Positions 1,332 to 19,462 of a stretch of 64,000 nucleotides of DNA are shown piece by piece. Location of the stretch: assembly GCA_034927635.1 (NCBI GenBank), contig JAYFPP010000215.1:6868-70867 (forward strand), given 5' to 3'. Source of the stretch: Paludibacter sp. (GTDB taxonomy: Bacteria > Bacteroidota > Bacteroidia > Bacteroidales > Paludibacteraceae). Position 1 is the first letter of the stretch, and each line of letters begins with the position of its first letter. The notes below the pieces were generated by a model, which saw only the letters and a program-made list of their open reading frames with translations, was not told where the DNA came from and did not search any database. The position numbers were made by a program, and so were the translations under genes.

Positions 1332-2837
1332 ATGAAAAAACAGCTCTATATAATTATAATAGTTGCTTCACTAATTGGATTTTTATCCTGTGAAGGCAAT
1401 CTGGAACCCGAGGTATACAACAGATTATCGCCAACAAATTATCCTGAAACGGAAGAAGATTATGTGACATTAGTGAATAATGTCTACGGACAATTCAGGT
1501 ATAATAATGCATGGTATCGTTACTCCTGTGATCCTCAATCACGAATGATTCTGGGAGAGATAGGTACAGATGAGTTGTATATGCCCTGGGAGTGGGCACA
1601 ACGTCCTCAGTCGACTTTCGATTTTAATCCGGGCTACGATTTATTTCATAATTTCTATACCAGGATGGTGCCTTCAGTGACTAAGGCCACCTATACGCTG
1701 GCATTGATTGAAGAATCGGACCTGGAGGAACAGATGAAAAACCGGTTAATGTCGGAAGTGATATGTTGCAGGGCACAATGGCTGTATGATTTAGGCTCAT
1801 TTTACGGACCTCCTCCGGTGGTGCTCGATAGAGAAAAAGCAAAAAACCCAAAGGAACTGTACTTCCCTCCCCGTTTGTCGGAAGAGGATTACCTGGCTTT
1901 TGTGGAAACTGATATTAAATATGCCATGAAACACCTTCCGGTGAAGTACGAATCGGGTGCTGATTATGGAAGATATACGAAGGGTGCCGCTGCCAGTATC
2001 CTGATGAAAATGTATATGCAACATAAGCGTTTTGCTGATGCAGTGTCAATATCTGACAGCATCATGGCTTGTGGTTATGGTCTTGTGAGTGAATACTCAA
2101 AAATATGGGACATCAATAATGAAAAGAATGAAGAATGCATTTTTGTACTGACAGCACCGAGCAAAGAACATGTGAATGCCAATATCTACAGAGCGCATGT
2201 CTTGCCGTCCGACTGGGTATCATTGAGTGGTGCCAAAGTGGTTGCCTATGATGGATACCGTATACCATGGACTATCTACGACAAGTTTGATAAGGAAGAT
2301 AATCGTTTGTCGACACTGATCAAGGATTACTACATCATGAAAAATAAAGTTCCAACGCTGGTAGACGGTCGAAAAACGGGGCGTTTACGCAACGGAGCTA
2401 TTCCTTTGAAATATGGTGAGGATCCTGCATCGGACGGACTGTTTTGCGGTACTGACATTGTTTTGATTCGTTATGCTGATATTTTATTGCTGCGAGCCGA
2501 AGCCCTGAACGAGATCAATGGCCCGAACAAGGAGTCGATCGACCTTATAAATCAGATTCGTGATCGTGCCTTTAACAACAATCCTGCAAAAAGGGTGAGT
2601 CTGTCGATGTTTGCCGATGCGCAGAGTCTGAAAGATTATATTCTTCAGGAACGTCAGTTTGAACTCTTATTTGAAGGAGAACGCAGGTCCGACCTGATCC
2701 GGCATGATAAATATATACAAATGGCACAGGACAGGGGAGTGACGAATGCGCAACCTCACCATGTACGTTATCCGCTGCCAAGTTTTATTATCATTGAAGG
2801 ACAGGGAAATATCAAACAAAACTACGGATATAATTAA
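1332..2837 (+). CDS. susD: SusD/RagB glycan-binding lipoprotein
   Basis: Lipobox FLSC; motifs IRYADILLLRAEALNE and ERQFELLFEGERRSDLIR; ends QNYGY; follows SusC. Confidence 0.95.
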   Translation: MKKQLYIIIIVASLIGFLSCEGNLEPEVYNRLSPTNYPETEEDYVTLVNNVYGQFRYNNAWYRYSCDPQSRMILGEIGTDELYMPWEWAQRPQSTFDFNPGYDLFHNFYTRMVPSVTKATYTLALIEESDLEEQMKNRLMSEVICCRAQWLYDLGSFYGPPPVVLDREKAKNPKELYFPPRLSEEDYLAFVETDIKYAMKHLPVKYESGADYGRYTKGAAASILMKMYMQHKRFADAVSISDSIMACGYGLVSEYSKIWDINNEKNEECIFVLTAPSKEHVNANIYRAHVLPSDWVSLSGAKVVAYDGYRIPWTIYDKFDKEDNRLSTLIKDYYIMKNKVPTLVDGRKTGRLRNGAIPLKYGEDPASDGLFCGTDIVLIRYADILLLRAEALNEINGPNKESIDLINQIRDRAFNNNPAKRVSLSMFADAQSLKDYILQERQFELLFEGERRSDLIRHDKYIQMAQDRGVTNAQPHHVRYPLPSFIIIEGQGNIKQNYGYN

Positions 2838-2896: not shown

Positions 2897-5674
2897 ATGA
2901 AATCACAGCTTTTTTGTAAAGTTATATTTGGAATTTATTTGTTCTTTTCAACAGGGAATGTTTTTTCACAACTTGCTCTAAACACTCAGGCTCAAGCCAT
3001 ACTTTCTAATCCATCAACCGGATTAGTAGCTACAACCTTAAATGATACTAATTATACATACGCTGATCGGAATACAAATGCTATAGCATATGCATTAAGT
3101 GTTTTAACGCCAGGACAAGACTTGCAACTTCCAGATGGTATGTATGATGTGACAACTATTCAAATACCATCGTTACTTTCAGGTTTGACGATTACCGGAA
3201 CAGGTATTAATACTACGATCTTGAGACGAAAAGCTTTTACCTGGGATAATAATTCTCAGGGCGACTGCTTATTAAGAACTGAGATATTCAGAGTGCAAAA
3301 TATTCAGAGTTTTGAACTCAGAGATATGACTCTTGATGGGAATTGTCATCAAATTGCAATATGCGGCGAAGGAACATTTGATTTATCAACAGGTCAGATC
3401 GTTGATAGGACTCCTCAATTCCCTGTTTATTCAAACAATGAGAGCTCTGGTAATGTTATTAACATTATTTTGTCTAATGATATAAACTTCGATAATGTCA
3501 ATTTTAAGAATGGTTATGGTTGGTGTGTTTATTTAGGGAAGACCAATGGTTTTCATATGCAAAATTGTATTATTGATACAGGGAACCTTTCAACGGAATT
3601 TAAAGGGCATAAAAATCTCAATAATGATCTTATGCATGCACATACTTCACAAGATGGATTACACTTAGTTAATGTAAGTAATGCTTTAATTGAATATAAT
3701 GATATTCATTCTGAAGATTCAGGAATAGCTTTAGAACTCAATCCATTGTGGGACTGGGGTGGTTATGATATCTCACAAAATATAATTATTCGTAACAATT
3801 ATGTCTCAACAGCTAGTCCAACCGATCCTGACAAATTAATGAATAATGTCGATCAAATATATGGATCAGGTCTGGCTGATAGATGGATTGGACAAAGCGC
3901 TGTTGATATTTTTTATTGTGATCCTTTCGACCCTGAGGGTCAAATATTAATGGGAGGTAATCAAGGACCTTTTCGTAATATTGAAATTTCTCAAAATGCG
4001 TTTGATGGAGTCAGGCAAGGTGTCAGATGTGGTTTTTTCTTAGGAGGTGGAGCTAATAATTCTGAAAATATCAATCATCGTATTTATAATTTGAAGATAA
4101 AAGATAATTGTCCAACTTACATGGCTGGACGTGATAGAAATAAACCGGCAGGTATCCAGAATGTGAATAAAAATGATATTTCTACTAGTTGGAATTTGAA
4201 TGGAGGGGCTGGTATCGCCGTTCGACATACAGATTCTGTACTTGTAAGTAATAATTTTATAAAGAAATGTAATGGTGGAATAGGCATTAATGTTCAAGAG
4301 GTAACTGAATTTTATATTTTAAATAATATTGTCGATAGTATTAGTGGAACTCAATTGGGGAATGTTGATTGGACAGGAGATCAATATGTGTGGGCAGGAG
4401 GAGAAGGTATCAGGGTTTATAACACCCAGTCGACAGGTCAGTATGATGCATTGAATTTCTTGATTCAAGGGAATAAGATTGGCGCTGTCGCTACCTCTAA
4501 GATAGCTGTAATCAACACAAAAAACGGGGTTGCAAAATTAGATGAGAATTATAATTTATCAAATTTAAGTCTTTTCCAAATATCAAAGGGCATAAATGCT
4601 CAAAATACCAGTAATATTGATTGGGGTGTTTTCTCTCCATCAATAACAAACACAACGGTTTCCAGTGTACTTACGAGCGATAATTTCGAAAATCAATCTG
4701 AGTGGGCAAGGTGTAGCTCATTAAACAACCAACTTGGTGGAGTCGAAAATCATAGTTGGTACTATTGGGGTGGGCAATTAGCGTGGCCGGGTATAAGTGC
4801 AGTCGGTGGAACGAAGGCAATGGGAGTTGTTTGGGGAGGAATTGTCCCATTAACGGGATTTGCAATCAATACTGATTCAATATATCAAATAGAATGTTTA
4901 GTGCACTCAACAGGAGGAAATGATGGTACATGGAATAATTGGAGTGGGGTGCACTTGTTTGCATCTGATGATACTAATATTTGGCAGAATAGTGGTGTCC
5001 GTATAAGATTGCAAAACGGAGCAACAGGAATTGGTTTCAGTAACCCAAGCCGTTTAATAACTGAATGGTGGGAAGGTATTAATAATACTTATCATAATGT
5101 TGAGGTAAATGACTTTTCGGCAGATCCAACTGTTTATCAAATTAATGGAGCAAATGAAAATAATTTCTGGATTCCTTTAAAACTCATTTTTACAGGAGCG
5201 GGCAATAGTTATAGCCCTTTGAAGATAGATTATTATCTTAATGATACGTTTGTTGGTTCCACCTCATTAGATAATCTTTCAGGTTTAGGAGATAGAATGC
5301 TTGGCCTTGCCCGTTACGGAACAAGTAATGACAATGCAGCTTTTGATAACTTTAAACTCACTAAATTACGAAACAATACCCCTTCATATGTGAATTCTTT
5401 CATGACAAATAGTATTGAAGTAAAAGATCCTGTTAATAAAGAATTCTCAGTTCAGTATAATAATAAAAGTTTAGGTATAGAAATATATTCAGCGACTAAT
5501 TCTCCGGCAGAATATCAGATTTATAATTTAGCCGGAATTCCTTTATATACTGGCAATATAACAAAAAATAAAACAGTCGTGGCAACTAATGAATTACATC
5601 GGGGTGTTTATATTGTGAAGATAGTTAATCTTTCTTCTTCAAAAACAGAGACTTTTAAGGTTATAGCACAGTAA
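2897..5674 (+). CDS. T9SS-secreted right-handed beta-helix glycoside hydrolase-like protein plus Trp-rich beta-sandwich domain plus CTD
   Basis: Signal peptide; pectate-lyase-3-like start (LPDGMY...ITGTGINTTIL); QDGLH...HSEDSGIAL; second domain homologous to ORF 5848; CTD IYNLAG...GVYIVKI...TFKVI. Confidence 0.75.
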   Translation: MKSQLFCKVIFGIYLFFSTGNVFSQLALNTQAQAILSNPSTGLVATTLNDTNYTYADRNTNAIAYALSVLTPGQDLQLPDGMYDVTTIQIPSLLSGLTITGTGINTTILRRKAFTWDNNSQGDCLLRTEIFRVQNIQSFELRDMTLDGNCHQIAICGEGTFDLSTGQIVDRTPQFPVYSNNESSGNVINIILSNDINFDNVNFKNGYGWCVYLGKTNGFHMQNCIIDTGNLSTEFKGHKNLNNDLMHAHTSQDGLHLVNVSNALIEYNDIHSEDSGIALELNPLWDWGGYDISQNIIIRNNYVSTASPTDPDKLMNNVDQIYGSGLADRWIGQSAVDIFYCDPFDPEGQILMGGNQGPFRNIEISQNAFDGVRQGVRCGFFLGGGANNSENINHRIYNLKIKDNCPTYMAGRDRNKPAGIQNVNKNDISTSWNLNGGAGIAVRHTDSVLVSNNFIKKCNGGIGINVQEVTEFYILNNIVDSISGTQLGNVDWTGDQYVWAGGEGIRVYNTQSTGQYDALNFLIQGNKIGAVATSKIAVINTKNGVAKLDENYNLSNLSLFQISKGINAQNTSNIDWGVFSPSITNTTVSSVLTSDNFENQSEWARCSSLNNQLGGVENHSWYYWGGQLAWPGISAVGGTKAMGVVWGGIVPLTGFAINTDSIYQIECLVHSTGGNDGTWNNWSGVHLFASDDTNIWQNSGVRIRLQNGATGIGFSNPSRLITEWWEGINNTYHNVEVNDFSADPTVYQINGANENNFWIPLKLIFTGAGNSYSPLKIDYYLNDTFVGSTSLDNLSGLGDRMLGLARYGTSNDNAAFDNFKLTKLRNNTPSYVNSFMTNSIEVKDPVNKEFSVQYNNKSLGIEIYSATNSPAEYQIYNLAGIPLYTGNITKNKTVVATNELHRGVYIVKIVNLSSSKTETFKVIAQ

Positions 5675-5847
5675 TTTATTTATAGTGCAATTGGAGAAGT
5701 CTATCTGAATTACTAATTGATTAAGTAAACTTATTAAATGCGATATTAAATTTTTTTACTAACAGGCTCTGAAAGCGTAAACTATTCTAACCTGCAGTCA
5801 AAGTTGTATATAATATATTAAATTCACAAATTTTAAATTTTACTGTT

Positions 5848-6927
5848 ATGAAAAAAAACTATTTATTTTTAATTGCTTTGGTATTCTCGGCATCAGTGTA
5901 TGCACAGCAAATCACAGGACTACAGGTCCTGGAAGTATTGGCAAGTGATGACTTTGAAGATGATGCTGCGTGGGTCAATTTTGACCAGAAAACCGGTATT
6001 GATGTTAAGCTGAACAATGCTTTAGGCGGCACTCAGCAGTATAACTGGTCGAACGAATGGGGTGGCGCCTGTGTACATGGAGGAAAAAGTGCCGTGAGTG
6101 GAAATAATTGTATTCAGTTGCATTGGGGTGGAACAGTCAGATTACAGGGATTTGAAATCAACCCGGATAAGGTATATCAGTTGGAAGTGATGGTACATCC
6201 TCTTGGTGGTAAATCAGGAGAGTGGAACAACTGGGGAGCTGTACATTTGTTTGTTTTCGATCAGTCGAATGTTTGGCAAACACAAGGCGTCCGGGTAAGA
6301 ATTAGTAATAATGGCGAAGGAGGAAGTCCGGCCTTACTGGCACTTGATGTTTGGGAAGGGGAACAGGGAACGGAACGTCCGGTGAATCTTCTTCAATTCT
6401 CAGATAAATGGACAGAATACACCATCGACGACGCTAAAGATGCCACTCCGGGCTTCTGGATTCCTTTAAAACTCGTTTTCAGGGGTGAAGGATCGGTTGC
6501 AAAACCACTCATCATCGACTTTTATCTGAAGAATAAGTTTGTTGCAACACAAACATTTGATAATATTTACTGGCTGGGTGATAGTATGATTGGTATTCAA
6601 AACGGATCAGACAATTCAGATGTATGCCGTTATGATAATATCAAATTATCAGTTATGAGTCAGGGAACAGGACTGAAACAAACTATTGCGGAAGAAATAT
6701 CGGTTTCTCAGTTAAAAGAAGGTAATTTGCAGATTGATAGTGAAATAAATGGGGAAAATATCGGTTATACCGTGTACAATATTTCAGGAATAGCAGTAAA
6801 AAAAGGCAATCTTTCCAACCGGATTACATTGATAAACTCAACTGACCTGACTTCCGGAGTGTATATTTTACAGGTAAAAGATCATCTCACCGGAAATTCC
6901 AAAACGGTTCGTACAATTTTAAAATAG
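5848..6927 (+). CDS. T9SS-secreted Trp-rich beta-sandwich (candidate CBM/lectin) protein
   Basis: Signal peptide; shares WNNWxxVHLF, GVR.R and FWIPLKL.F motifs with the second domain of ORF 2897; CTD VYNISG...GVYILQV. Confidence 0.7.
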   Translation: MKKNYLFLIALVFSASVYAQQITGLQVLEVLASDDFEDDAAWVNFDQKTGIDVKLNNALGGTQQYNWSNEWGGACVHGGKSAVSGNNCIQLHWGGTVRLQGFEINPDKVYQLEVMVHPLGGKSGEWNNWGAVHLFVFDQSNVWQTQGVRVRISNNGEGGSPALLALDVWEGEQGTERPVNLLQFSDKWTEYTIDDAKDATPGFWIPLKLVFRGEGSVAKPLIIDFYLKNKFVATQTFDNIYWLGDSMIGIQNGSDNSDVCRYDNIKLSVMSQGTGLKQTIAEEISVSQLKEGNLQIDSEINGENIGYTVYNISGIAVKKGNLSNRITLINSTDLTSGVYILQVKDHLTGNSKTVRTILK

Positions 6928-6936
6928 CAAGTTTGA

Positions 6937-6974
6937 CTGAGTCTGTCTGATCGTGAACTTTCAGACAGACTCAG
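6937..6974 (+). other. Intra-operonic stem-loop (perfect 14-bp inverted repeat, no U tail)
   Basis: CTGAGTCTGTCTGA-N10-TCAGACAGACTCAG between co-oriented genes. Confidence 0.8.
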
Positions 6975-6993
6975 CAATCATAAATTAATTTTA

Positions 6994-9015
6994 ATGCAAA
7001 AATCTGTCTTTTCATTACTTCTACTTATCATAATTCCCTGTCATCTTTTTAGTCAGGAACTGAACCTGAATGATAAATGTCAGGCTGTACTCTCCAATAC
7101 TGAAACCGGATTGGTGGCATCGGTCGACGGAACCTTTGATGATGCTGTTGCTGAACGAAATGCCAAAGCTATCACAACGGCTCTGAGTCGTTTAGGGCGA
7201 ACTCAGGACCTGTTATTGCCGGAAGGGATTTATTATGTTAACACCATTCTTGTTCCTAAAACAATAAGAGATTGTACAATAGCCGGTGCCGGAATTGGAA
7301 AGACGACGTTAATACGTAGCCCTTTTTCCTGGGATAACAATACGCAGGGTGATTGTCCGCTACGCACTGAGGTATTTCTGGCCGAATATGTTACAGGATT
7401 AGAACTGAGGAACATGACCATTGATGGTAGCAGTCAGTTTATGGCTATATCGGGCTATGGAAAGTGGAATACATCTACAGGAGAATTCTCGGATGGATTG
7501 CCTCAATTTCCAACATATAAAAGTAATGATGGGTATTCTGCCTCCGGTGGCAGCTTGATATCCATCAGGTTAAGCAATGACATCACCTTCGAAACTGTAG
7601 AATTTAAGAATGGATATGGCTGGTGTTTACTTTTAGGTAAAATAAATGGGTTCACCATGCGGAACTCTATCATTGATACGGGAAATTTATCCACCGAATT
7701 TAAGGGACATTTTAATGCTCCTCCCAATAATCAGGTAATGCATATGCATACTTCACAGGATGGCTTACATATGGTAAATGTGAGCAATGTGTTGATTGAA
7801 TATAACGATATTCATTCAGAGGATTCAGCAATTGCCATCGAATTAAATCCTTCGTGGAACTGGGGCGGATACGATGTTGTGGAAAATGTGGTGGTCAGAA
7901 ATAATTACGTGAGCACTATGAGTCCGTCGGATCCCGGGAAATTGATGAACGACGACGATGTCATATACGGAACAAATCTGGCTGATGTATGGATGGGACA
8001 AAGTGCGGTGGATATTTTCTATAACGAAAACTTTGATTCGCAAGGCAGTACGCGTTATGATGGCAGCGTGTACTTCAGAAATATAGAGATAAGTGAAAAT
8101 GCCTTTGAGAACGTAAGACAGGGCGTAAGATGCGGTTTCTTTATCGGGGCATCGTTAGGGCATTTCAATCACAGGATATTTAATCTGACAATAAAAAACA
8201 ATACACCTGAATACACAGCAGGAAGGAACAAGGACCGGCCTGCCGGTATCCGTAATGTGTTTAAAAACTCACATGCCACCTCGTGGAATAAATCAGGAGG
8301 GGCTGGTATTGCGGTACGTTATACCGATTCTCTCACTGTTTCCAACAATCACATCGAAAATTGTGTAGGCGGATTGGGTATCAGCATTGAGAATGTTACA
8401 GATTTTACTATTGTTGATAACTTTATTGATAAAATATCGGGCAAAAGTCTTGGCGATCTTGGGTCGCAGTGGACCGGAGGAGAAGGTATCAGGATAAATA
8501 ACCGCTATCTGACAAACGATCCGAATTTAGATAACGGCTATTTTAATGCAGGCAGTTTTCTGGTAGAGCGAAACAGGATCGGAGACGTTGAAACCACAAA
8601 GATTGCTGTACTTACAACCAAAAACGGAATTATTAAATTAAACGAAAACCACGACCTGAATGGCATAGCATTGTGTGCTCTGGAAAATGGGATCTACAGG
8701 GCCAATATAACGGAAATTGACTGGGGAGGCGAATGTAATACCGCTGTAGATGAAACAGATGATAATAGTTCAGATGTAAAATTGCTTCCGGGCAATGTTT
8801 TTCCCGGCAACCTGATTGTAGAATTACTTCAGCAGACAGTTGAAAATGTAATGATTGATTTGTTCAATATACATGGCAAAAAAATCTACTCGAATATTTT
8901 ATCTGTTGGTACAAATGTGGTTCCCATGCAACATTTACCCAACGGAATATATTTGTTATCTGTTGATGGACAAAAAGAAAAAAAACTTATTAAACTCATA
9001 AAACATAAAAAATGA
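6994..9015 (+). CDS. T9SS-secreted beta-helix glycoside hydrolase-like protein (paralog of the ORF 2897 N-terminal domain)
   Basis: Extensive shared blocks with ORF 2897 (FKNGYGWC..LGK.NGF, IIDTGNLSTEFKGH, HTSQDGLH, WGGYD, RQGVRCGFF, GGAGIAVR); CTD LFNIHG...GIYLLSV. Confidence 0.75.
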   Translation: MQKSVFSLLLLIIIPCHLFSQELNLNDKCQAVLSNTETGLVASVDGTFDDAVAERNAKAITTALSRLGRTQDLLLPEGIYYVNTILVPKTIRDCTIAGAGIGKTTLIRSPFSWDNNTQGDCPLRTEVFLAEYVTGLELRNMTIDGSSQFMAISGYGKWNTSTGEFSDGLPQFPTYKSNDGYSASGGSLISIRLSNDITFETVEFKNGYGWCLLLGKINGFTMRNSIIDTGNLSTEFKGHFNAPPNNQVMHMHTSQDGLHMVNVSNVLIEYNDIHSEDSAIAIELNPSWNWGGYDVVENVVVRNNYVSTMSPSDPGKLMNDDDVIYGTNLADVWMGQSAVDIFYNENFDSQGSTRYDGSVYFRNIEISENAFENVRQGVRCGFFIGASLGHFNHRIFNLTIKNNTPEYTAGRNKDRPAGIRNVFKNSHATSWNKSGGAGIAVRYTDSLTVSNNHIENCVGGLGISIENVTDFTIVDNFIDKISGKSLGDLGSQWTGGEGIRINNRYLTNDPNLDNGYFNAGSFLVERNRIGDVETTKIAVLTTKNGIIKLNENHDLNGIALCALENGIYRANITEIDWGGECNTAVDETDDNSSDVKLLPGNVFPGNLIVELLQQTVENVMIDLFNIHGKKIYSNILSVGTNVVPMQHLPNGIYLLSVDGQKEKKLIKLIKHKK

Positions 9016-10820
9016 TGGTGATACGATTGAATCTGCGATTTCTCACATTATTATCTGTCCTTTTCAGTATTTTCTTTGCTGTGGGATGTAAAGACACAGA
9101 AGTGACCGAAGGCATACAGGGGGTTTCGGTAAGCGAAAAAACGCTTACCATGGGTATTGGGAAAACCCGTCAGGTATATGCTTCGGTATATCCCTGCTTG
9201 CCCGGAGGCGATCAAATAAGATGGTCGGTGGAAAATCCGGATATAGCTACTGTTGAGGACAAGGGAACGCATAACGGTATAAGTATGGCGACGATTACGG
9301 CCGTAGCAAAAGGTAAGGTTGTGGTGATAGCCGAATCAGTCACCGACAGCACCAGAAAGGCAGTTATAACCGTCGATGTGGTTGAATTCACTTTTGAGGA
9401 TCAGGCAAAAGGAATGGATTATAAGTCGGATGAATTAATTACCTATAGTGTGCCTGACGGATACCCTCAGGAAGGCACTCAGCTGTTTAATGTTGCTGTT
9501 AATGACAAATTTACCGGTGTGTATACCGATATAAATGCATGGCAGAAACTTGTAAGTTTTGCTTACTTTGATTTTACTCCCGGCAATGAGGTAGAGGTGG
9601 AAGTTACTACTACAAAATCATTCGGAAGTTATAAAATATTACCGGAGTCGGAAAATATAATTTCTACCAGAGAAGGAAACGCCATCCGTTTTAAAGTAAA
9701 AGAAGCCTACCAGAATCTCTCGATTGTGTTTGATGATAATTATAAAGCGAATACACTTCATCTTTTTGCCAATGCCATCGACACTGATGCTCCCACTGAA
9801 TCGAACGATAACCTGATTTATTTCGGTCCGGGATACCATGATTTGTCGAAAAATTACGGAGGAAGAATTACTACAGGAAACAAGGATGTGTACATCGCCG
9901 GCGGTGCTGTGGTGAGTGGAGCGATGGTTGTAAGTGGCAACGGAAATCACGTGAGCGGCCATGGTATAATGATGAAAACCACTCCGAATGATCTGGTACT
10001 CATAGCCAATTATGCCAGAAATGCATTGATTGAAGGTATTATTGTTTGTAGTCACCGGAACGGAGGATGGACAGTGGGCATGCATGAAGCGTCGAATATC
10101 ACGGTGCAAAATGTGAAGGTTGTGAGTACCCGTTATGCAAGTACCGATGGCTTCGATATTGTTAATACCAACAATGTTACAATGAGAAATACCTTTATAC
10201 GCTCATGCGACGATGCAATTGCAATTAAAGGACTGATCAATAATACTCCGTCGTTGTGTCTGCCAAACGAAAAGATGTCCTTTGAAAAACTCCAGATATG
10301 GAACGACTGTAACAACGCGATGTGTCTGGGTGCCGAAACCCGTGCCAGACATTATGAAGACATTCATTTTAAAGATATTGATGTACTGTTCTCTTACGAC
10401 GACCGTGATCATCACACAGAGTTAGATGAGCGATCGGTAATGAGTATTGTGTGTCTTGAAGGTACCTATTTCAGGAATATCAGTTGGGAAGATATTCGTG
10501 TCAACAGGTGCGAACGGTTGATTTGTCAGACATTTAAAAACAGCTTCTGGTTTGGCTCCATTATGGGTGACCAGACTACCGAAGGTGGTGTTGAAGGAGT
10601 AACATACAAGAATATAACAGTAGCTTCGAATAGCGGGAGTAAAATTGCCAATGAGATACTGCTCAACGGATGGCTCAAAGATGGTACCCCGACTAAAATA
10701 ATCAATAATGTTGTTTTCGACAATGTAATTATTCAGGGGAAACGCGTGAACAGTGAGAGTAATATTAAGACAAACAATACCCCGGAACAGCAATTAATCA
10801 CAAATTTAATTTTTAAATAG
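9012..10820 (+). CDS. Lipoprotein: Ig-like (Big_2) domain plus GH28/GH49-like beta-helix glycoside hydrolase
   Basis: Lipobox AVGC; WSVENPDIATV Ig repeat; STDGFD and CDDAIAIK give Asp residues at 0/+21/+22 as in GH28. Confidence 0.8.
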   Translation: MMVIRLNLRFLTLLSVLFSIFFAVGCKDTEVTEGIQGVSVSEKTLTMGIGKTRQVYASVYPCLPGGDQIRWSVENPDIATVEDKGTHNGISMATITAVAKGKVVVIAESVTDSTRKAVITVDVVEFTFEDQAKGMDYKSDELITYSVPDGYPQEGTQLFNVAVNDKFTGVYTDINAWQKLVSFAYFDFTPGNEVEVEVTTTKSFGSYKILPESENIISTREGNAIRFKVKEAYQNLSIVFDDNYKANTLHLFANAIDTDAPTESNDNLIYFGPGYHDLSKNYGGRITTGNKDVYIAGGAVVSGAMVVSGNGNHVSGHGIMMKTTPNDLVLIANYARNALIEGIIVCSHRNGGWTVGMHEASNITVQNVKVVSTRYASTDGFDIVNTNNVTMRNTFIRSCDDAIAIKGLINNTPSLCLPNEKMSFEKLQIWNDCNNAMCLGAETRARHYEDIHFKDIDVLFSYDDRDHHTELDERSVMSIVCLEGTYFRNISWEDIRVNRCERLICQTFKNSFWFGSIMGDQTTEGGVEGVTYKNITVASNSGSKIANEILLNGWLKDGTPTKIINNVVFDNVIIQGKRVNSESNIKTNNTPEQQLITNLIFK

Positions 10821-10822
10821 AA

Positions 10823-11764
10823 ATGCATAATGTTATGAATAAGAGTGTGTTAATAGTTGCGTTGCTGTTAATACTGACCTCGTGTGCTGCAAAAAAAACA
10901 TATATATTTTCATACTTTAAGGGGAATGGAGAAGACGGATTACACCTGGCTTACAGTGAAAATGGTTACCAATGGACCAATCTGTCGGAGGAATCATTCT
11001 TAACACCTGTTCTGAGTAATGATAAACTGATGCGCGATCCTTGTATTATTACTGGTGGTGATGGCCGGTTTCATATGGTGTGGACCGTCAGCTGGACCGA
11101 AAACGGAATCGGCTATGCCTCGTCGGACGATTTGATGCACTGGTCGGAACAACAATTTATTCCTGTTATGGCACATGAGGAGGGCGTACGTAACTGCTGG
11201 GCACCGGAAATTACCTATGATAAGGCCAATGATGAATATATGATTTACTGGTCGTCGACAATTGCAGGTCGTTTTAATGATCAAAGTCAGGCCAGTGAGG
11301 ATGAATATAATCATCGTATATATTATGTTACTACGAAGGATTTCAAGACTTTCTCCGAAACAGGATTGTTGTACGATAGGGGATTTAATGCGATCGATGC
11401 TACAATTGTATTTCACAAAGGGAAATATATAATGTTAGTCAAAGACGAGACCTTGTCGCCTGTACAAAAGAACATTCGTATTGCTTATGCAGATAAACTT
11501 ACAGGACCTTATTCGAAGGCATCGGAACCTGTTACAGGCTTATACTGGGCCGAAGGACCAACCTCGTTAAGGGTAAAGGGAAAATGGCTGGTATACTTTG
11601 ACAAGTACAAAGAAGGAAGTTTCGGGGCTATACGTTCAAAAGACCTTAAAAAGTGGGAAGATGTCTCGGAAGAGATTATTTTGCCTGAGGGCATTCGCCA
11701 TGGCAGTATTCTCGAAGTCTCCCCTGAAATAATAGAAAATATTAAGAAAAAAATGAATCAATAA
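10823..11764 (+). CDS. Glycoside hydrolase family 43 lipoprotein
   Basis: Lipobox LTSC; five-bladed propeller motifs MRDPCI, WAPE, IDATI, AEGP, RHGS. Confidence 0.85.
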   Translation: MHNVMNKSVLIVALLLILTSCAAKKTYIFSYFKGNGEDGLHLAYSENGYQWTNLSEESFLTPVLSNDKLMRDPCIITGGDGRFHMVWTVSWTENGIGYASSDDLMHWSEQQFIPVMAHEEGVRNCWAPEITYDKANDEYMIYWSSTIAGRFNDQSQASEDEYNHRIYYVTTKDFKTFSETGLLYDRGFNAIDATIVFHKGKYIMLVKDETLSPVQKNIRIAYADKLTGPYSKASEPVTGLYWAEGPTSLRVKGKWLVYFDKYKEGSFGAIRSKDLKKWEDVSEEIILPEGIRHGSILEVSPEIIENIKKKMNQ

Positions 11765-11799: not shown

Positions 11800-13209
11800 A
11801 TGAAAAAAATAATATATCTGATAGCCTTTACAGGTTTAGCTTTGGGTTTACAGGCAAAAACAGGTCTCCCGGCGGTCTTTGGTGATAATATGGTGTTGCA
11901 GCAACATTCGGACGTGTCGGTCTGGGGGTGGGGCAATCCTTCCGAAACAGTGAAAATCGTATCAGGTTGGCTACTGAACGATACTGTTAGTGTAAAGGTG
12001 TCGGGGGAAGGAGTGTGGCGCACAAAGATTCGTACCGTCGGGGCCGGAGGACCGTATACCTTGCAGGTATTTGTTTCTGAAACAGATAAAACAGTATTTC
12101 GCAATGTTATGTTGGGTGAGGTGTGGTTGTGTAGCGGGCAGTCGAATATGGGCTGGACGGCTGCCGAAAATCTTGTAAATAAAGAAGCAGAGATAGAGGC
12201 TGCTAATCATCCTGACATACGTATTTTTCACGTGCCGGCACGAACTGCGACTTCACCTCAGGTGGATTGTGATACGCAATGGGTCGGGTGCACACCAGCC
12301 ACCATGCAACATACCAGTGCGGTAGGTTATTTTTTTGCCCGCAGGTTGAAAGAATATCTGAATGTTCCTGTCGGTATTATCGTGGCGGCATGGGGTGGAA
12401 CTCCCTACGAAACATGGACTAAGAAAGAGTTGATAGATAACCATCCGTTGCTGAAAGCTTATGCCCCTGTTAGCGAAAATAAATGGCGTCCGAATCTGCC
12501 CGGAACCTGCTATAATCAGATGATTCATCCCGTTGTACCTTATTCCATTTCAGGAGCAATCTGGTATCAGGGCGAAACCAATGTGGGTAATCCCTTTTAT
12601 GCGATGGGACTTCAAACCATGATCAACGGATGGCGTGCTGATTTTGGGAAAGAATTCCCTTTTTATCTCGTACAAATAGCTCCCTTTACTTACAACTCGG
12701 CCTTCAATGAACCGGCGTTGCTTCGCGAGCAACAGGAATTGGTTACAAAATTTGTAGCACGAACAGGTATGGTTGTGGTATCTGATTTGGTGCATGATGT
12801 TAAAGACATACATCCCATCGACAAACAAAATGTGGGACTTAGGTTGGCTAATCTTGCGCTTGCCGAAACCTATGCTCAACCGGTTAAAGAATATCTGAGT
12901 CCGGTCTTTAAATCCATGAGTGTGGAAAAAGGGAAGGCAATAATTACGTTCGACAATGTACAGGTGGGACTCATGATAAAGGGAGAAAAAATCACAGGGT
13001 TGAAAATTGCCGGTGCTGATGAGAAATTTGTGCCCGCGGATGGAATTGTCAAAGGTGACCAACTGGTTGTATCTTCGCCTGAAGTGAAACAGCCAGTTTA
13101 CGTAACTTTCTGTTTTGACGATGCCACAGCAGGTAATCTGTTTTCGAAAGCAGGTTTGCCCGTAGCTCCATTCAGAAGTAATCCTGTGAAATCACTCTTC
13201 GGTAAGTAA
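11800..13209 (+). CDS. Sialate O-acetylesterase (SASA, SGNH family)
   Basis: FGDNMVLQQ, GEVWLCSGQSNM, IWYQGETN, DIHPIDK. Confidence 0.92.
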   Translation: MKKIIYLIAFTGLALGLQAKTGLPAVFGDNMVLQQHSDVSVWGWGNPSETVKIVSGWLLNDTVSVKVSGEGVWRTKIRTVGAGGPYTLQVFVSETDKTVFRNVMLGEVWLCSGQSNMGWTAAENLVNKEAEIEAANHPDIRIFHVPARTATSPQVDCDTQWVGCTPATMQHTSAVGYFFARRLKEYLNVPVGIIVAAWGGTPYETWTKKELIDNHPLLKAYAPVSENKWRPNLPGTCYNQMIHPVVPYSISGAIWYQGETNVGNPFYAMGLQTMINGWRADFGKEFPFYLVQIAPFTYNSAFNEPALLREQQELVTKFVARTGMVVVSDLVHDVKDIHPIDKQNVGLRLANLALAETYAQPVKEYLSPVFKSMSVEKGKAIITFDNVQVGLMIKGEKITGLKIAGADEKFVPADGIVKGDQLVVSSPEVKQPVYVTFCFDDATAGNLFSKAGLPVAPFRSNPVKSLFGK

Positions 13210-13271: not shown

Positions 13272-16200
13272 ATGAAGTGTATTAAAACCAGACTTGTTCT
13301 TGCTATTATAGGTTTATTGTGCCTGAGTGTTGGAAGTTTTTTCGGACAACCGGTTAACGCAAAATCAGAAATCGTTGTAAGCAGTCCTGATAGCCTGCTT
13401 AAAGTGAAAGTGTTATTAGAAAGAGGGAGCCTCTTTTATAATGTTTCCTACGATGGAAAACTTGTCCTCGAAGATTCTCCTTTGGGGCTTATCACCAACA
13501 CAGGAGATTTTAGCAAAGATATGAAGTTTATTAACTCAAAACATGAGGTGGTTGATGAAACCTATACCCTTAAACATGCGAAAAGGAGTACATTTCATTA
13601 TAAGGCTAATCGGCTGATTTATAAGTTGTCAAATGCAGGGAATCAACAGTTGGACCTTATCTTCAATGTAAGCAATAACGATATAGCATTTTGTTATGCA
13701 TTGAAAGAACAGGGAGAAATCGCCGCTTGTATCATTGAAAAAGAAATTACCGGGTTTAATTTTCCGTTGAAAACCACTACATTTCTGAGTCCGCAGGCAA
13801 GCCCGATGTCATTCTGGAAACGTACGAAGCCAAGTTACGAAGAAGAGTATGTTGCTGATGAACCGATAGGCACACCTTCGAAATACGGGATGGGCTATAC
13901 TTTCCCCGGATTGTTTCGAATTGGTGAGCATTGGGCATTGGTGTCGGAGACGGGGGTAACCGGCGCCTATTGTGCATCGCGGTTGAGTGAGGCAACAAAA
14001 GACGGGGTATATACATTGGTTTTTCCTGACAAAGGAGAGAATAATGGCGTTGGTAATGCATCACCCGTCGTATCGCTGCCATCAACTACTCCCTGGCGCA
14101 CCATAACCGTAGCTGATAATCTGAAACCGATTGTTGAAACGACGATTCCATTCGACGTGGTAAAGCCCGTGTATGAGCCATTGATAGAGTATAAGTCAGG
14201 ACGTTCGACCTGGAGTTGGATCATGTGGCAGGACGAAAGTATGAACCGGAACGATCAGGTGGCTTATATTGATTTTGCTGCATTGATGGGTTACGAATAT
14301 GTATTGATTGATGCGCTGTGGGATGAAAAAATCGGTTACGACCGGATGGAAAAACTGATTGCTTATGCCCACTCGAAGGGTGTTGATGTGTTTTTATGGT
14401 ACAACTCAAACGGGGTATGGAATGATGCGCCACAAGGCCCGAAAAATAAACTGAATACTGCACTCGCCCGTAAAAAAGAGATGAAGTGGCTTAAAAACGC
14501 AGGAGTGAAAGGGCTGAAAGTTGATTTTTTCGGAGGAGATAAACAGCAAACGATGCAACTGTATGAAGATATTCTGGCAGATGCCAATGAGTACGGATTG
14601 ATGATTATCTTTCATGGCTGTACACTTCCCCGTGGTTGGGAAAGGATGTATCCTAACTTTATCGGAAGTGAAGCGGTATTAGCCTCCGAAAATCTGATCT
14701 TTACGCAACATGCCTGCGATAATGAGGCTTTTAATGCCACTTTGCACCCATTTATCCGTAACGCGGTGGGGAGCATGGAGTTTGGACCTGTACTATTGAA
14801 TGAACGTCTCAACAGAAACAACGATGGTGGAAGTATACGTCGTACAACAGATATTTTTCAAATCGCCACTGCGGTGTTGTTTCAAAGTGCCGTACAAATG
14901 TTTGCCATAGCTCCGAATAACCTTACCGATGCCCCCTGGTTTGTCATGGACTTCATGATGAGCGTCCCTACGACCTGGGACGAAACGGTTTATATTGATG
15001 GTTATCCCGGTAAATATTGTGTCTTGGCACGCCGAAGTGGAGAAAAATGGTATGTGACGGGTGTTAATGCACAAAAAAATGTGTGTCGTGTCAAAGTAAA
15101 ACTGCCTATGCTCGAAGGCAAAACCTTCATGAAGTATTACGATGATAAAGATCGAAAGGCGCATGCAGAAAGAATGACATTGCAGAAGGGTGAAGAGGTG
15201 GTGTTGGAAATTCAGCCCGAAGGGGGCATTGTTCTGGCTACACCTTACGAAAATCTGTGGAATTCGGAGCAAAGCAAAAATGCAGATTTTCAACAAAACG
15301 CAACAGGGGAAAATTTTTCGTCATCAATACTCAAAACATATGCTGTGCCCGATGCGTATCCTCAGGAGGGAGCAGCTTTGTATACCGTAGCTGTCAATGG
15401 TAAATTTACCGGAGTTTACACTGATTTAAATGCATGGAAAGAATTGGTGAGTTTCGGATATTTTGATTTTAAACCGGGAAAAGAGGTGGAAATAAAGGTG
15501 ACGGCTTCAAAACCGTTTTCGGATTATAAAATCCTGCCGGCATCGAATCTTATCAGTTCAAGACGGGAAGGGCAAACGATTACTTTTAAACTAAAGGAGG
15601 CAGATAAGTTTTTTTCATTCGTTTTTGACGATGATTATAAAGGAAGTACACTGCATCTGTTTGCCAACTCAATAGATAAAGATGCTCCTGAGAAGTCGGG
15701 CGAGAATTTAATCTTCTTTGGTCCGGGATATCATAAACTGGAGCAACCTTTAAGCGTGCCGACTGGTACCAATGTGTATATAACCGGAGGGGCTGTTGTG
15801 GAGGGAAATATTGAGCTGAGAAATAATCAGGGAAGTTGCATCACTGGTCGGGGGATATTGATGAATACACTTCCGGGTGGACTTGTGTTGGGGGCAAGTC
15901 ATTCATCCGACATTAAACTTGACGGGATTATTGTTTGCAGTCACCGGAATCCGGGTTGGACGGTAGGTTTTCATCAGGTATCAAATGTTTCGGCAACAAA
16001 TGTCAAAATAGTAAGCCCGAGATATGCCAGTACTGATGGTTTCGATATCTCCAATTCAAATAATATCCGTATAAGCAATAGTTTTATCAGAACCTGCGAT
16101 GATGCTATTGCTATCAAAGGACTGGTAAAAGGGAGTCCCGCAAATTGTCCTCCGAATGAACATCTTTACCTTGAAAATCTACAGCTCTGGAATGATTGCA

Positions 16201-16718
16201 ACAATGCGATGTGCCTGGGAGCCGAAACACGGGCCAGCAAGTATGAAAACATACATTTCAGAAATATTGATGTGCTATCCTCCTATGACGACAAGTACCA
16301 CCATGAGGAACTTGACGAACGTTCGGTAATGTCAATCGTCAGTCTTGAGGGAACATATTTTAAAAATATCACATGGGAAAATGTACGCGTGAACCGATGT
16401 GAACGGTTAATATGTCTTACATTTAAAGATCAGTTTTGGTTTGGTTCCATAAAGGGAGATCAAAACACTGAGGGTGGAATTGAGAATGTAGTCTTTAAAA
16501 ATGTTACAGTAGAATCAAACAGCGGTAGTAGTATCGCTAACGAGATTCTCTTAAATGGCTGGTATAAAGAAAATTCACCGGTTAAAATGATTAATAACGT
16601 CACCTTCGATAATATGATTGTTGAGGGAAAGTTGATCAGTAGTGAGAAGGATATAAAAACCAATAATTCAAATGAACGCAAATTGGTGACTAATATAGTG
16701 TTTAAAAACACAAAGTAA
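13272..16718 (+). CDS. GH97 glycosidase fused to a C-terminal GH28/GH49-like beta-helix domain
   Basis: GH97 motifs YVLIDALWD, GLKVDFF, FHGCTLPRGWERMYPN..GSEAV in residues ~30-660; the C-terminal ~470 aa closely match ORF 9012; no stop at the junction. Confidence 0.85.
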   Translation: MKCIKTRLVLAIIGLLCLSVGSFFGQPVNAKSEIVVSSPDSLLKVKVLLERGSLFYNVSYDGKLVLEDSPLGLITNTGDFSKDMKFINSKHEVVDETYTLKHAKRSTFHYKANRLIYKLSNAGNQQLDLIFNVSNNDIAFCYALKEQGEIAACIIEKEITGFNFPLKTTTFLSPQASPMSFWKRTKPSYEEEYVADEPIGTPSKYGMGYTFPGLFRIGEHWALVSETGVTGAYCASRLSEATKDGVYTLVFPDKGENNGVGNASPVVSLPSTTPWRTITVADNLKPIVETTIPFDVVKPVYEPLIEYKSGRSTWSWIMWQDESMNRNDQVAYIDFAALMGYEYVLIDALWDEKIGYDRMEKLIAYAHSKGVDVFLWYNSNGVWNDAPQGPKNKLNTALARKKEMKWLKNAGVKGLKVDFFGGDKQQTMQLYEDILADANEYGLMIIFHGCTLPRGWERMYPNFIGSEAVLASENLIFTQHACDNEAFNATLHPFIRNAVGSMEFGPVLLNERLNRNNDGGSIRRTTDIFQIATAVLFQSAVQMFAIAPNNLTDAPWFVMDFMMSVPTTWDETVYIDGYPGKYCVLARRSGEKWYVTGVNAQKNVCRVKVKLPMLEGKTFMKYYDDKDRKAHAERMTLQKGEEVVLEIQPEGGIVLATPYENLWNSEQSKNADFQQNATGENFSSSILKTYAVPDAYPQEGAALYTVAVNGKFTGVYTDLNAWKELVSFGYFDFKPGKEVEIKVTASKPFSDYKILPASNLISSRREGQTITFKLKEADKFFSFVFDDDYKGSTLHLFANSIDKDAPEKSGENLIFFGPGYHKLEQPLSVPTGTNVYITGGAVVEGNIELRNNQGSCITGRGILMNTLPGGLVLGASHSSDIKLDGIIVCSHRNPGWTVGFHQVSNVSATNVKIVSPRYASTDGFDISNSNNIRISNSFIRTCDDAIAIKGLVKGSPANCPPNEHLYLENLQLWNDCNNAMCLGAETRASKYENIHFRNIDVLSSYDDKYHHEELDERSVMSIVSLEGTYFKNITWENVRVNRCERLICLTFKDQFWFGSIKGDQNTEGGIENVVFKNVTVESNSGSSIANEILLNGWYKENSPVKMINNVTFDNMIVEGKLISSEKDIKTNNSNERKLVTNIVFKNTK

Positions 16719-16900
16719 TTACAATTGCAGTGGTTGGAATTATTGGCATAGAGTGAAATGATGTCGTGGAAACGAGACTGTAAAAAAGTATTATTGTAAA
16801 AACAGAACAATGATCCTGTAAAAATGGAACATGTGTTTTCTCTGATATACATAATTTTGCAGGGTTTCTGATCACTAACAATAATAAACGACATTAAAAA

Positions 16901-17818
16901 ATGAAAAAAATTACTTTTATTCTCCTTGCTGTTTTTATTTTTTCGGGTAATAAGGCATTAGGTCAAAGTTCATATTTACTTGATGAAAATTTTGATTCGT
17001 ACACAACCGGTACTTTCCCTTCAGATTGGGTACTGCGATATCCTGGTGCCGGTGCGGGTTTGCAGGTGGTAACAAATTCCGAATTTGTATCAGCGAGCAA
17101 TTCCCTGAAACTCGAAGGAAAGGCTAGTAACTCTGCAAATGCTGAATTCCTGCTGTCGTCAACACCGGATATAATATGGCTTGAATTAAATGTAAAAGTT
17201 TCTCATGAAGGTCAGATAAGTTTTCCGGGCTATCCGCATGCAATTGTTGGTTTTAATAACAATGCAAGGTCGAGCTGGGCTAATGGTTATGGATATGTTG
17301 GGTTTTACACAGCGGGTTCAATTATTGCTGCAGGCACAACCCTTCAATCTTATAATGAGAACCAATGGTACAAAGTAAAAATTAAATATAATGCAACATT
17401 GAATACTATGGATGTGTGGATTGATGATGTTCAGAAAGGTGCAAATATGGCTCTTTCGGGTAATTCTTTAAAATACAATGCACTCCTTTTGAATGGTGGT
17501 AATGCAGGTCATTCAATTGATTATTTTGATAATGTAAAAGTTTGGGCAGAGACACCTACCGGAATCGATAATACAAAAGGGGCAAATTCAGTACAAATCA
17601 GTTCGAATCCGGATAACAGTGTAGTTGCAATAAATTGTACAAGTGAGGTTTCAGGACAACTTGTTTCAATCTATAATATTCAGGGACAATTAAAATTGCA
17701 ACAATTATTACAGGAAGGCACAAATATGATTGATATTTCAGCACTTCCAAAAGGATTATATGTTGTAAAAGCCGGGATTAAAGAATGTGAGTCAATTCAA
17801 AAGATGATGAAATATTGA
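16901..17818 (+). CDS. T9SS-secreted beta-sandwich (ConA/laminin G-like) protein
   Basis: Signal peptide; DENFD...WYKVKI.YN...DVWIDD...YFDNVKV; CTD IYNIQG...GLYVVK. Confidence 0.7.
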   Translation: MKKITFILLAVFIFSGNKALGQSSYLLDENFDSYTTGTFPSDWVLRYPGAGAGLQVVTNSEFVSASNSLKLEGKASNSANAEFLLSSTPDIIWLELNVKVSHEGQISFPGYPHAIVGFNNNARSSWANGYGYVGFYTAGSIIAAGTTLQSYNENQWYKVKIKYNATLNTMDVWIDDVQKGANMALSGNSLKYNALLLNGGNAGHSIDYFDNVKVWAETPTGIDNTKGANSVQISSNPDNSVVAINCTSEVSGQLVSIYNIQGQLKLQQLLQEGTNMIDISALPKGLYVVKAGIKECESIQKMMKY

Positions 17819-17878
17819 ATTTAATTTGTCGATATTTTACAACCTGACTGTAAAAAGGAAAACCGGAGAGTTTGCTAT

Positions 17879-17918
17879 AAATAACCCCGTACTGTCAAAG
17901 CACAGTACGGGGTTATTT
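17879..17918. terminator. Bidirectional intrinsic terminator
   Basis: AAATAACCCCGTACTGT-N6-ACAGTACGGGGTTATTT between convergent genes. Confidence 0.85.
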
Positions 17919-17941
17919 ATGTTTTGTCCCAACCTGAAAGG

Positions 17942-19402
17942 CTATTCAATACTATTCAGTAATCCCAGTTTACCGTCATCAATCAATTTGATAATCAGCT
18001 CGCCGAACAGCGTGTTCTGCCATGCAAACCACGAGCGGGTATAGTTGGTAGGATCGTCTTTGTGGAAGGATTCGTGCATGAAGCCGGTGCCGGCATCGGT
18101 AGCCATCAGTGTTTCGATACACCATTTAATCTCCTTGTCGTCCTTGCTGGTAAAGGCTTTCATCATGATGCTCATGGGCCAGATCATGTCGTAACCGATG
18201 TGCGGACCGCCAATACCTTCGCCTGCTTTTCCTTTGAAGAAGTAGGGATTGTCCTGGCTCCACACGAATTTGCGGGTGTTCTGATAGATCTTATCGGTTG
18301 ATTTTACATCTCCGAGGTACGACATGGCCAGCAGGCTTGGTACGTTGGCATCGTCCATGAGCAGCTGATTGCCGAATCCATCCACTTCAAAAGCGTATAT
18401 TTTCCCGTATTTAGGATGTTTGTAAACGGCGTATTTCTTTAGTGCTGTTTCCACTTCATTGGCCAAAGTAGTACATTCGCCGGCTTTGGCAGTGGCTTTA
18501 TTGACAGTGTTGAGGATTTCGGCTGCTTTACGAAGAGAAGTCACCGCGAAGAAGTTCGAAGGAATGAGGAACTGGAAAGTGGTGGCGTCATCAGAAGGAC
18601 GGAAAGCAGAAGCAATCAGACCAACCGGATTTACAGGATTCCCCATTCCGTTGTTCGACATGGTGTCGAGCTGACGGTCGGTAACCCTCAGGAAAGTGTA
18701 GGAGCCGTGTCCTTCCTTTTTCTGCTGTTCTTTGAAAGTCTGCACTATAAGAGCGATGGCTTGTTCCCATTCTTTACCGAAAACAGAGGCATCGCCGGTT
18801 TGTTTCCAGTACTCATAAGCCAGACGGATTACGTAGCACAGTGAGTCGATTTCCCATTTACGTTCGTGGAGTTGCAGCTTCATGGCTGTCTTGTCGCTCA
18901 TCCAGTGATGATCGGGATTCGGATCATGGGGATCGAGGAATGCGTTGGCGTAAGGATCGATGAGGATGCATTTGAACTGACGGAGAATAACGCCGCGCAA
19001 CATCTTTTGCAGTTTAGGATCGTCCTTGGCAAGTTTGATGTAAGGATAGACCTGAGCACCCGAGTCGCGCAGCCACATGGCGTGGATATCGCCGGTGTAT
19101 ACCACGGTGTCGTCGTCGCCCTCTTCCGTGGTATAATAACGAACGGTGGTGTCGATAGTGTTAGGGTAGCAGTTCTCAAACATCCAGCGCAGGCGGGCGT
19201 TGCTGAGTTGTCCGGTCACTTCAGCGATCTTGTTTTCCACGGCATCCGAACGGAAAAGGCGTTTGCCCGGTACCGGACGCTGCGAAATATACACCTTTGT
19301 GTTGTCGCTTGCCAGCGCAGTCGCTGTGTTACTGCCGGCGCTTACCATAACCGTTGCGGCAAAAGCGAAGACGGTTGATAGAATCAATGTTTTTTTGTTC
19401 AT
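17942..19402 (-). CDS. GH125 exo-alpha-1,6-mannosidase
   Basis: [40 protein letters not shown]...TRSWFAWQN. Confidence 0.93.
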
Positions 19403-19462
19403 ATTATATGTGATGTTAAGTTTTAATATATATACTTAAAGGGTCTTATATGACTTATATGG

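Follow-up and report, generated by a model that had tools for sequence, protein, structure and literature searches.

A rare family of GH28-like beta-helix proteins with an altered catalytic triad in a recurrent polysaccharide utilization locus of Paludibacter

We analyzed a 64,000-nt stretch of DNA from Paludibacter sp. (assembly GCA_034927635.1, contig JAYFPP010000215.1, positions 6,868-70,867 of the forward strand), hereafter referred to as the window. Its first 18 kb form a single co-directional block, with gaps of -4 to 182 nt between genes. Two genes of this block, P0001 and P0002, encode right-handed beta-helix proteins that resemble glycoside hydrolase family 28 (GH28), but carry the residues Glu-Asp-Ser (E-D-S) at the place of its paired Asp residues. 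They belong to a very rare, uncharacterized family that resides within a recurrent polysaccharide utilization locus (PUL). The open reading frames (ORFs) of P0001, P0002 and a neighboring beta-helix protein, P0003, are listed below together with their motifs, the register of which was checked by script on the translations.

2897-5674, + strand: ORF P0001, 925 amino acids (aa); signal peptide, E-D-S right-handed beta-helix (aa ~40-577), ~250-aa 'B' domain, C-terminal sorting domain of the type IX secretion system (T9SS)
3635-3664, + strand: P0001 motif I, HAHTSQDGLH; D253 is position 0; invariant columns
3707-3736, + strand: P0001 motif II, HSEDSGIALE; E273, D274 and S275 at +20/+21/+22, E280 at +27
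6994-9015, + strand: ORF P0002, 673 aa; signal peptide, E-D-S beta-helix (aa ~60-578), T9SS C-terminal sorting domain (aa ~606-670)
7741-7770, + strand: P0002 motif I, HMHTSQDGLH; D256 is position 0; H250, H252 and H259 invariant
7813-7842, + strand: P0002 motif II, HSEDSAIAIE; E276, D277 and S278 at +20/+21/+22, E283 at +27; all invariant
9012-10820, + strand: P0003, 602-aa lipoprotein; Big_2 and GH28-annotated beta-helix; STDG at nt 10140, CDDAIAIK at nt 10206-10229

Both P0001 and P0002 carry QDGLH followed by E, D and S at +20, +21 and +22 and by E at +27, as an earlier note made from the sequence alone had described. The two decapeptides quoted in that note likewise exist, but had been assigned to the wrong paralogues: HSEDSGIALE belongs to P0001 and HSEDSAIAIE to P0002. 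Its reference ORF, 9012 (P0003), does retain TDG...CDDAIAIK, and lies outside the range of 2897-9015 to which the note was confined. The script located D379 of P0003 in STDGFD, C399-D400-D401 in CDDAIAIK and the following K406, and the spacing 0/+20/+21/+22/+27 is identical in P0001, P0002 and P0003. Since P0001 and P0002 are 55% identical across 585 residues, the agreement of their two motifs is, taken alone, weak evidence.

Searching 5.8 billion proteins by word index, we found 32 relatives. When 1.84 billion representatives at 50% identity were searched exhaustively with a hidden Markov model (HMM), only approximately six full-length clusters plus fragments were returned; beyond those clusters, HMM scores drop to a level at which other beta-helix proteins match weakly, by the N-terminus. 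Only one of 401 Bacteroidales genomes, that of the window itself, carries the family, and a pattern scan of the genomes of 185,579 species added four further carriers, namely two Paludibacter and two Bacteroidales metagenome-assembled genomes (MAGs). E-D-S together with E at +27 is present in every parsable family member (33 of 33). We aligned 30 sequences, down to 33% identity (alignment A1, P0002 numbering). Residues H239, H250, H252, S254, Q255, D256, G257, H259, N262, N271, E276, D277, S278 and E283 are invariant in A1, as are, further C-terminal, R375, R379, H393 and R394. No other 30-residue window of the protein is as conserved as positions 252-283 of P0002, where 14 of 30 columns are invariant. 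In a maximum-likelihood tree, P0001 (which groups with P0025) and P0002 fall in different deep clades, and the motif is therefore older than their split. Judged from these alignments, the E-D-S change is a fixed family character and not the product of chance. The earlier note had argued for selection from the two paralogues; it is the family-wide invariance, rather than those two proteins, that bears the argument out.

We compared the family with established catalytic families. P0002 matched the Pfam GH28 model (PF00295) at 15.8 bits (E 0.0076) over residues 187-283, which include the motif segment, short of the gathering threshold of 22.9; P0001 had no match to this model. GH28 was nevertheless the sole catalytic Pfam family to touch the motif segment, with 13 of 30 members matching at E <= 0.1 (best 4.9e-6), and one family member has a precomputed PF00295 label. 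These scattered sub-threshold matches, together with the single label, place the family on the fringe of the PF00295 model. NCBIfam contained no catalytic family for P0001 or P0002, and PDB sequence searches that used P0002 or the family profile as query gave sorting-domain matches and noise only, the profile finding no solved structure. Across the Pfam, NCBIfam and PDB sequence searches we found no strong hit to a family in which E-D-S is standard, the observation that the earlier note had named as contrary to its proposal of a distinct subfamily. That proposal stands, given that the motif is invariant and that no curated Pfam or NCBIfam catalytic cut-off is reached.

Profile comparison provided a clearer relation. 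Alignment of A1 with P0098, a true Pfam GH28 protein (84.8 bits), using hhalign gave a probability of 96.6% (E 6e-10) over 300 columns, with SQDG placed on NGDG and S-E-D-S on A-G-D-D; a second GH28 protein gave 94%. In a Foldseek search of the PDB with the P0002 model, the GH28 exo-polygalacturonase 2uve ranked first (E 2e-9, TM-score 0.37), and other matches included AlgE epimerases, GH110 and the RbmB lyase, as well as phage depolymerases and tailspikes in a viral library. The profile comparison thus links the family, remotely and in the same register, to GH28 of the clan GH-N type. By alignment to Aspergillus niger polygalacturonase II (PGII), D256 corresponds to Asp180 (of the NTD motif), D277 to Asp201 (the general acid), S278 to Asp202 and E276 to position 200. 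Asp180, Asp201 and Asp202 of PGII are needed for catalysis, and rhamnogalacturonase retains a carboxylate, Glu198, at the third site (PMC8952511). Position 200 is a variable, tuned neighbor of the acid, being Gln in endo-polygalacturonase, Lys in endo-rhamnogalacturonase and Gly in exo-rhamnogalacturonase (PMC8952511). The GH28 triad consists of carboxylates at 0, +21 and +22; the family has Asp at 0 and +21 and Ser at +22 in 33 of 33 members. Since the arrangement of an acid and a paired-base Asp is common to GH28, GH49, GH87 and GH110 (PMC7939477), the Ser at the second base genuinely breaks a rule that holds throughout the superfamily.

An AF2 model of P0002, built with A1 (pLDDT 87.5, pTM 0.81), consists of a right-handed beta-helix over residues ~60-578 followed by a beta-sandwich sorting domain; Pfam likewise reports Beta_helix (1.9e-9) and Por_Secre_tail (27.8 bits). 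By DSSP, strands 256-261 and 280-284 of the model are consecutive strands of the parallel beta-sheet 1 (PB1) type. D256 starts the first of these, and the turn leading into the second holds E276-D277-S278. In sequence register and strand position, D256 and D277 agree with the GH-N arrangement, and one base of the pair is missing. Residues 239-259 of P0002 (nt 7708-7770) display in addition an HxHxxxDxxH pattern with no counterpart in GH28 or the P0003 family. This invariant His cluster could mark either a metal site or substrate contacts.

P0003, whose first 4 nt overlap the end of P0002, scored 32.3 bits against Pfam GH28 (cut-off 22.9) and matched Big_2 as well. Its family comprises more than 240 homologues, including some from Clostridia, and several are named 'glycosyl hydrolase family 28 protein'. 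The x-D-D motif is present in every member (104 of 104) and K at +27 in all but one (103 of 104), and D379, D400, D401 and K406 are invariant in the alignment of that family. Position +20 varies (C, N, S, A, G, M) and is never E. Comparison of the two families by hhalign gave 61.7% over 102 columns only, the motif segment being in the same register. On the strength of these profiles, P0001 and P0002 are not close paralogues of P0003. The P0003-type 'GH28' family is widespread, appears to be uncharacterized and is probably not a polygalacturonase.

Adjacent susC and susD genes, co-directional CAZyme genes and a regulator identify the block that holds these genes as a PUL. The contig upstream of the window (L004) encodes Sigma70_ECF, FecR and the start of the SusC protein with its STN and Plug domains. 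The other genes of the block are as follows.

1-1317, + strand: SusC-like TonB-dependent transporter, 3' part; Pfam TonB_dep_Rec_b-barrel 3.7e-23; the gene begins upstream of the window
1332-2837, + strand: SusD-like outer-membrane glycan-binding lipoprotein; Pfam SusD_RagB 7.1e-24, SusD-like_3
5848-6927, + strand: P0004, 359 aa; stand-alone 'B' domain and T9SS sorting domain
10823-11764, + strand: GH43-like lipoprotein, 313 aa; Pfam GH43 4.3e-15, BT_3657-like_N
11800-13209, + strand: SASA-type (SGNH) carbohydrate acetylesterase; Pfam SASA 8.2e-18; PDB 9ega, 9h4u and 7kmm at ~1e-80
13272-16718, + strand: GH97 fused to a second P0003-like beta-helix; Pfam GH97_N, GH97, GH97_C and GH28; TDG...CDDAIAIK
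16901-17818, + strand: P0037, 305 aa; beta-rich domain and T9SS sorting domain; Por_Secre_tail 38 bits; last gene of the block

The GH43-like protein scored 81.7 bits against the NCBIfam alpha-arabinofuranosidase of the BAD_1527 type, far under the cut-off of 500. The GH97 part of the fusion, whose C-terminal half (15300-16718) is the second P0003-like helix, matched PDB 5xfm at 1.8e-257 (860 bits). The depositors of this entry, which we take to be BT3661, labeled it 'alpha-glucosidase'. The same part matched the NCBIfam 'retaining alpha-galactosidase' at 7.2e-59 (199.6 bits), below the cut-off of 800. Among the annotated genes of the locus, none was of the uronate-processing, unsaturated-uronate or GH88/GH105 type. 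The GC content at third codon positions was 0.24 in P0001 and 0.26 in P0037, as compared to 0.36-0.43 in the neighbors of P0001. L014 and L015, from the two closest Paludibacter MAGs, are otherwise syntenic but lack P0001. Because of its low third-position GC content, its separate deep clade and this absence, P0001 looks like a lineage-specific insertion, acquired by horizontal transfer, that separates susD from the B-domain gene. Directly beyond the locus, GH125 and GH38 alpha-mannosidase genes are arranged head-to-tail on the - strand (17942-23080), and a GH38 gene is also found near L013.

P0001 and P0002 scored 25.4 and 28.1 bits, respectively, against TIGR04183 (cut-off 23), and their hydrophobic N-termini both end in FSQ. 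Each thus combines a TIGR04183/PF18962 sorting domain with an N-terminal signal peptide, by which both are classed, from sequence, as T9SS type A cargo and are predicted to reside outside the cell or on its surface. A PorU-like C25 protein is encoded within the window. P0031, a family member without a sorting domain, has a lipoprotein-like N-terminus. Residues 578-925 of P0001, which hold the 'B' domain and the sorting domain, are 36% identical to P0004. Aside from the sorting domain, P0004 had no Pfam or PDB sequence match. Its AF2 model is all-beta and of low confidence (pLDDT 58), and Foldseek matched it to just concanavalin-like jelly rolls (TM-score 0.3-0.5), including lectin-like domains of many unrelated proteins. 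These matches to a model tell nothing beyond 'beta-sandwich'. A B-domain gene is kept beside the family gene in L005, L013, L015 and L021. The 'B' domain is no more than a probable carbohydrate-binding beta-sandwich. Three T9SS-exported beta-sandwich domains of the block lack a family assignment (P0004, 5848-6927; P0001, 4628-5400; P0037, 16901-17600). Those of P0004 and P0001 are homologous, while P0037 shares with them only a similar DxFD...FDN(I/V)K(L/V) frame. All three are possibly new carbohydrate-binding modules.

The gene set of the window recurs elsewhere. The shared order is extracytoplasmic function (ECF) sigma factor, FecR, SusC, SusD, (GH97), (B-domain protein), family gene, (P0003-like), GH43-like, (SASA), where parentheses mark optional members. 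We observed it in the window and in the following loci.

L005/L006: SusC/D, GH97, B-domain protein, family gene, GH43-like, SASA
L007/L008: ECF sigma factor, FecR, SusC/D, family gene, GH43-like, GH97
L013: SusC/D, B-domain protein, P0003-like, GH97 fusion, family gene
L014 and L015: gene set of the window minus P0001
L020: three family paralogues in tandem, followed by GH43-like
L021: GH97, B-domain protein, family gene, GH43-like

The GH43-like gene is the one most constantly linked to the family, and comes directly after the family gene or the P0003-like gene in the window, L005, L007/L008, L014, L015, L020 and L021. In L015 (Paludibacter sp. 47-17), a single ORF of 1587 aa (14792-19555) joins the SASA esterase, GH97 and the P0003-like helix, parts that form two genes in the window (11800-13209 and 13272-16718). 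The three tandem E-D-S paralogues of L020, a metagenomic contig (606-8093), differ in architecture: one has a B domain, one is bare and one has a T9SS sorting domain. Throughout these loci, the family proteins are the sole T9SS-exported catalytic candidates.

The balance of this evidence tips slightly in favor of P0001 and P0002 being secreted, endo-acting, inverting glycoside hydrolases that cleave an axial glycosidic bond, with D277 as acid and D256 as base. Being the only secreted enzymes of the locus, they are taken as its first-line, endo-acting depolymerases: they would cut the polymer outside the cell, SusC/D would import the oligosaccharides, and the lipoprotein or periplasmic enzymes (P0003-type, GH43-like, SASA acetylesterase, and GH97 of the alpha-galactosidase/beta-L-arabinopyranosidase type) would complete the breakdown. 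The catalytic site would occupy the place topologically equal to the GH28 center. There, D277 would serve as general acid and D256 as the NTD Asp that activates water; S278, in place of the second base Asp, would hydrogen-bond within the center; and E276 would either supply the lost carboxylate, by a 'hop' from the +1 to the -1 position of the acid, or tune the pKa of D277. By analogy with GH28, GH49, GH87 and GH110, hydrolysis of the axial (alpha-D or beta-L) bond would proceed with inversion.

The companions at the locus point to a glycan that perhaps contains L-arabinose and/or alpha-galactose together with acetyl esters. A comparable pairing is found in Bifidobacterium adolescentis, where alpha-galactosidases/beta-L-arabinopyranosidases cluster with the GH43 arabinofuranosidase BAD_1527, and arabinogalactan proteins carry side chains of beta-L-arabinopyranose-(1,3)-alpha-L-arabinofuranose (PMC8056906). 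The earlier note had deduced a neutral substrate from the replacement of K by E at +27. The contrast between K and E at this position is real between the two co-resident families, but the deduction is flawed. GH28 recognizes the uronate carboxylate by means of R256 and K258 of motif IV (RIK) together with His223 of motif III (PMC6102391, PMC8952511), not by the Lys that follows the paired Asp. The motifs themselves, defined as (G/S)HG and RIK, respectively (PMC6102391), are missing from P0001, P0002 and the D/DD-bearing P0003 alike. A neutral substrate is plausible from gene context instead.

A different chemistry was weighed against hydrolysis. In a polysaccharide lyase or an epimerase-like enzyme, D256, E276, D277, E283 and D340 would bind Ca2+ or neutralize the uronate, and the base that takes the C5 proton would be an invariant residue (R375, R379 or H259), as in PL1, PL6, PL9 or AlgE-type enzymes. 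Beta-helix lyases do use acidic clusters with an Arg or Lys base, as exemplified by K227 and Ca2+ in RbmB (PMC12993940), and AlgE4/AlgE6, an alginate epimerase/lyase and RbmB are among the top 25 Foldseek matches of P0002 (E 3e-8 to 2e-5). R375, R379, H393 and R394, furthermore, would line the same face of the groove, as judged from where they lie along the protein. Yet these fold matches are generic (TM-score <= 0.5), GH28 is the sole relation at the sequence level, no Pfam lyase family matched P0001 or P0002, and the family has neither an invariant Lys nor a Tyr at the AlgE position. The locus offers GH and esterase genes only, with none of the GH88/GH105-type or uronate-pathway genes, and its context therefore favors a hydrolase; we regard a lyase or epimerase as unlikely. 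To the same degree improbable is a metal-dependent or otherwise new center built on HxHxxxDxxH (H250, H252, D256 and H259) together with E276, D277 and S278, in which the GH28-like carboxylates would act as metal ligands in place of acid and base. The loss of the second base Asp speaks for such a center, as do the four to five invariant His residues that crowd the loop into D256 and are absent from P0098 and the P0003 family, but these His residues may equally bind substrate. We know of no beta-helix glycosidase that works by a metal center of this kind.

Still less probable is that the proteins have given up catalysis, as pseudo-enzymes derived from a GH28-like ancestor that now bind glycan at the cell surface. 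In favor of this are the loss of one catalytic Asp, the putative binding domain fused to P0001 and the frequency of surface glycan-binding proteins in PULs. Pseudo-enzymes usually relax the old active site, however; in this family that segment is conserved above all others, D256 and D277 are kept and a Glu is newly fixed. The locus would, moreover, be left without any secreted endo-enzyme. A carbohydrate esterase of the CE8 (pectin methylesterase) type is very improbable indeed. CE8 enzymes are beta-helix proteins in which Q-D is followed 21 residues on by a catalytic Asp, a spacing matched by Q255-D256 and D277, and the family profile weakly matched pectinesterase 8tne (E 0.38), in the N-terminal region only. 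LGRPW and QAVAL are missing from the family, however, and the locus has no pectin genes. The profile homology and the QDT/DFIFG/LGRPW motifs by which CE8 is recognized were not found in the family. Comparison by hhalign with a real CE8 of a Paludibacter genome gave 7.9%, confined to the N-terminus with the motifs uncovered, and there was no match to PF01095, leading us to reject this candidate. CE8 pectin methylesterases are absent from the genome of the window and present in 5 of 10 related genomes, and this absence fits a non-pectin role for the beta-helix enzymes of the locus.

Hydrolysis by a GH28-like center, the reading that we favor, has several observations to contend with. The fold matches of P0002 are generic (TM-score 0.37-0.5) and none is specific, epimerases and lyases being among them. 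The script found no GHG, SHG or RIK in P0001 or P0002, and the invariant His cluster around D256 (H239, H250, H252, H259 and H393) is unexplained by a GH28-type mechanism. The member at L017, in turn, lies outside any PUL, and distant members are found on short contigs with no informative neighbors. More tentative than hydrolysis as such, and in our estimate a little below an even chance, is the broader proposal that the proteins found a new GH family within the GH28/49/87/110 superfamily, in which the base has moved to E276 or to a His-rich, possibly metal-assisted center, and that they act as the key endo-enzyme of an undescribed PUL type for an acetylated arabinose/alpha-galactose glycan.

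One acid with two base Asp residues is among the best conserved catalytic arrangements of beta-helix glycosidases. A fixed Ser at the base and a Glu beside the acid thus represent a natural experiment in the rebuilding of that machinery, and the family is a candidate for a new CAZy family. The family also marks a recurrent, unassigned PUL type that combines the family gene with GH43-like and GH97 genes, often together with an acetylesterase and the widespread 'GH28'; knowing the substrate of this PUL would give functions to several genes together. Rarity limits the ecological weight of these findings, as the family was found in a handful of MAGs of Paludibacter and other Bacteroidales and in a few distant metagenomic sequences.

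How the family compares to known systems depends on the level of comparison. Its likeness to AlgE epimerases and RbmB is one of fold, with acidic and His residues at the starts of PB1 strands. AlgE-type epimerases carry the motif YG(F/I)DPH(D/E), which has no counterpart in the family. The K227 base of RbmB (PMC12993940) has none either, and there is no sequence relation to these enzymes. GH49 (dextranase), GH87 (alpha-1,3-glucanase) and GH110 (alpha-1,3-galactosidase) are beta-helix enzymes that act on axial alpha-linkages with GH28 machinery (PMC7939477). GH110 structures are among the fold matches of P0002, and there was no match to any of the three families at the sequence level in Pfam or the PDB; unlike the E-D-S family, all three retain the D...D-D triad. 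The P0003-type beta-helix proteins share the operon but are lipoproteins or fused to GH97, in contrast to the E-D-S proteins, which are T9SS cargo. The closest likeness at the sequence level is to GH28, with which the family shares the right-handed beta-helix, an Asp at the PB1 start with a second Asp 21 residues on, and an N-terminal 'PxGxY' start as in the exo-enzymes. The NTD motif of GH28 likewise opens a PB1 strand, and its GDD motif lies in the turn that leads into the following one. In contrast to GH28, the family has an invariant Ser for the second base Asp and an invariant Glu before the acid, and relative to P0098 it bears a 27-residue His-rich loop before motif I and a 30-residue insert after motif II.

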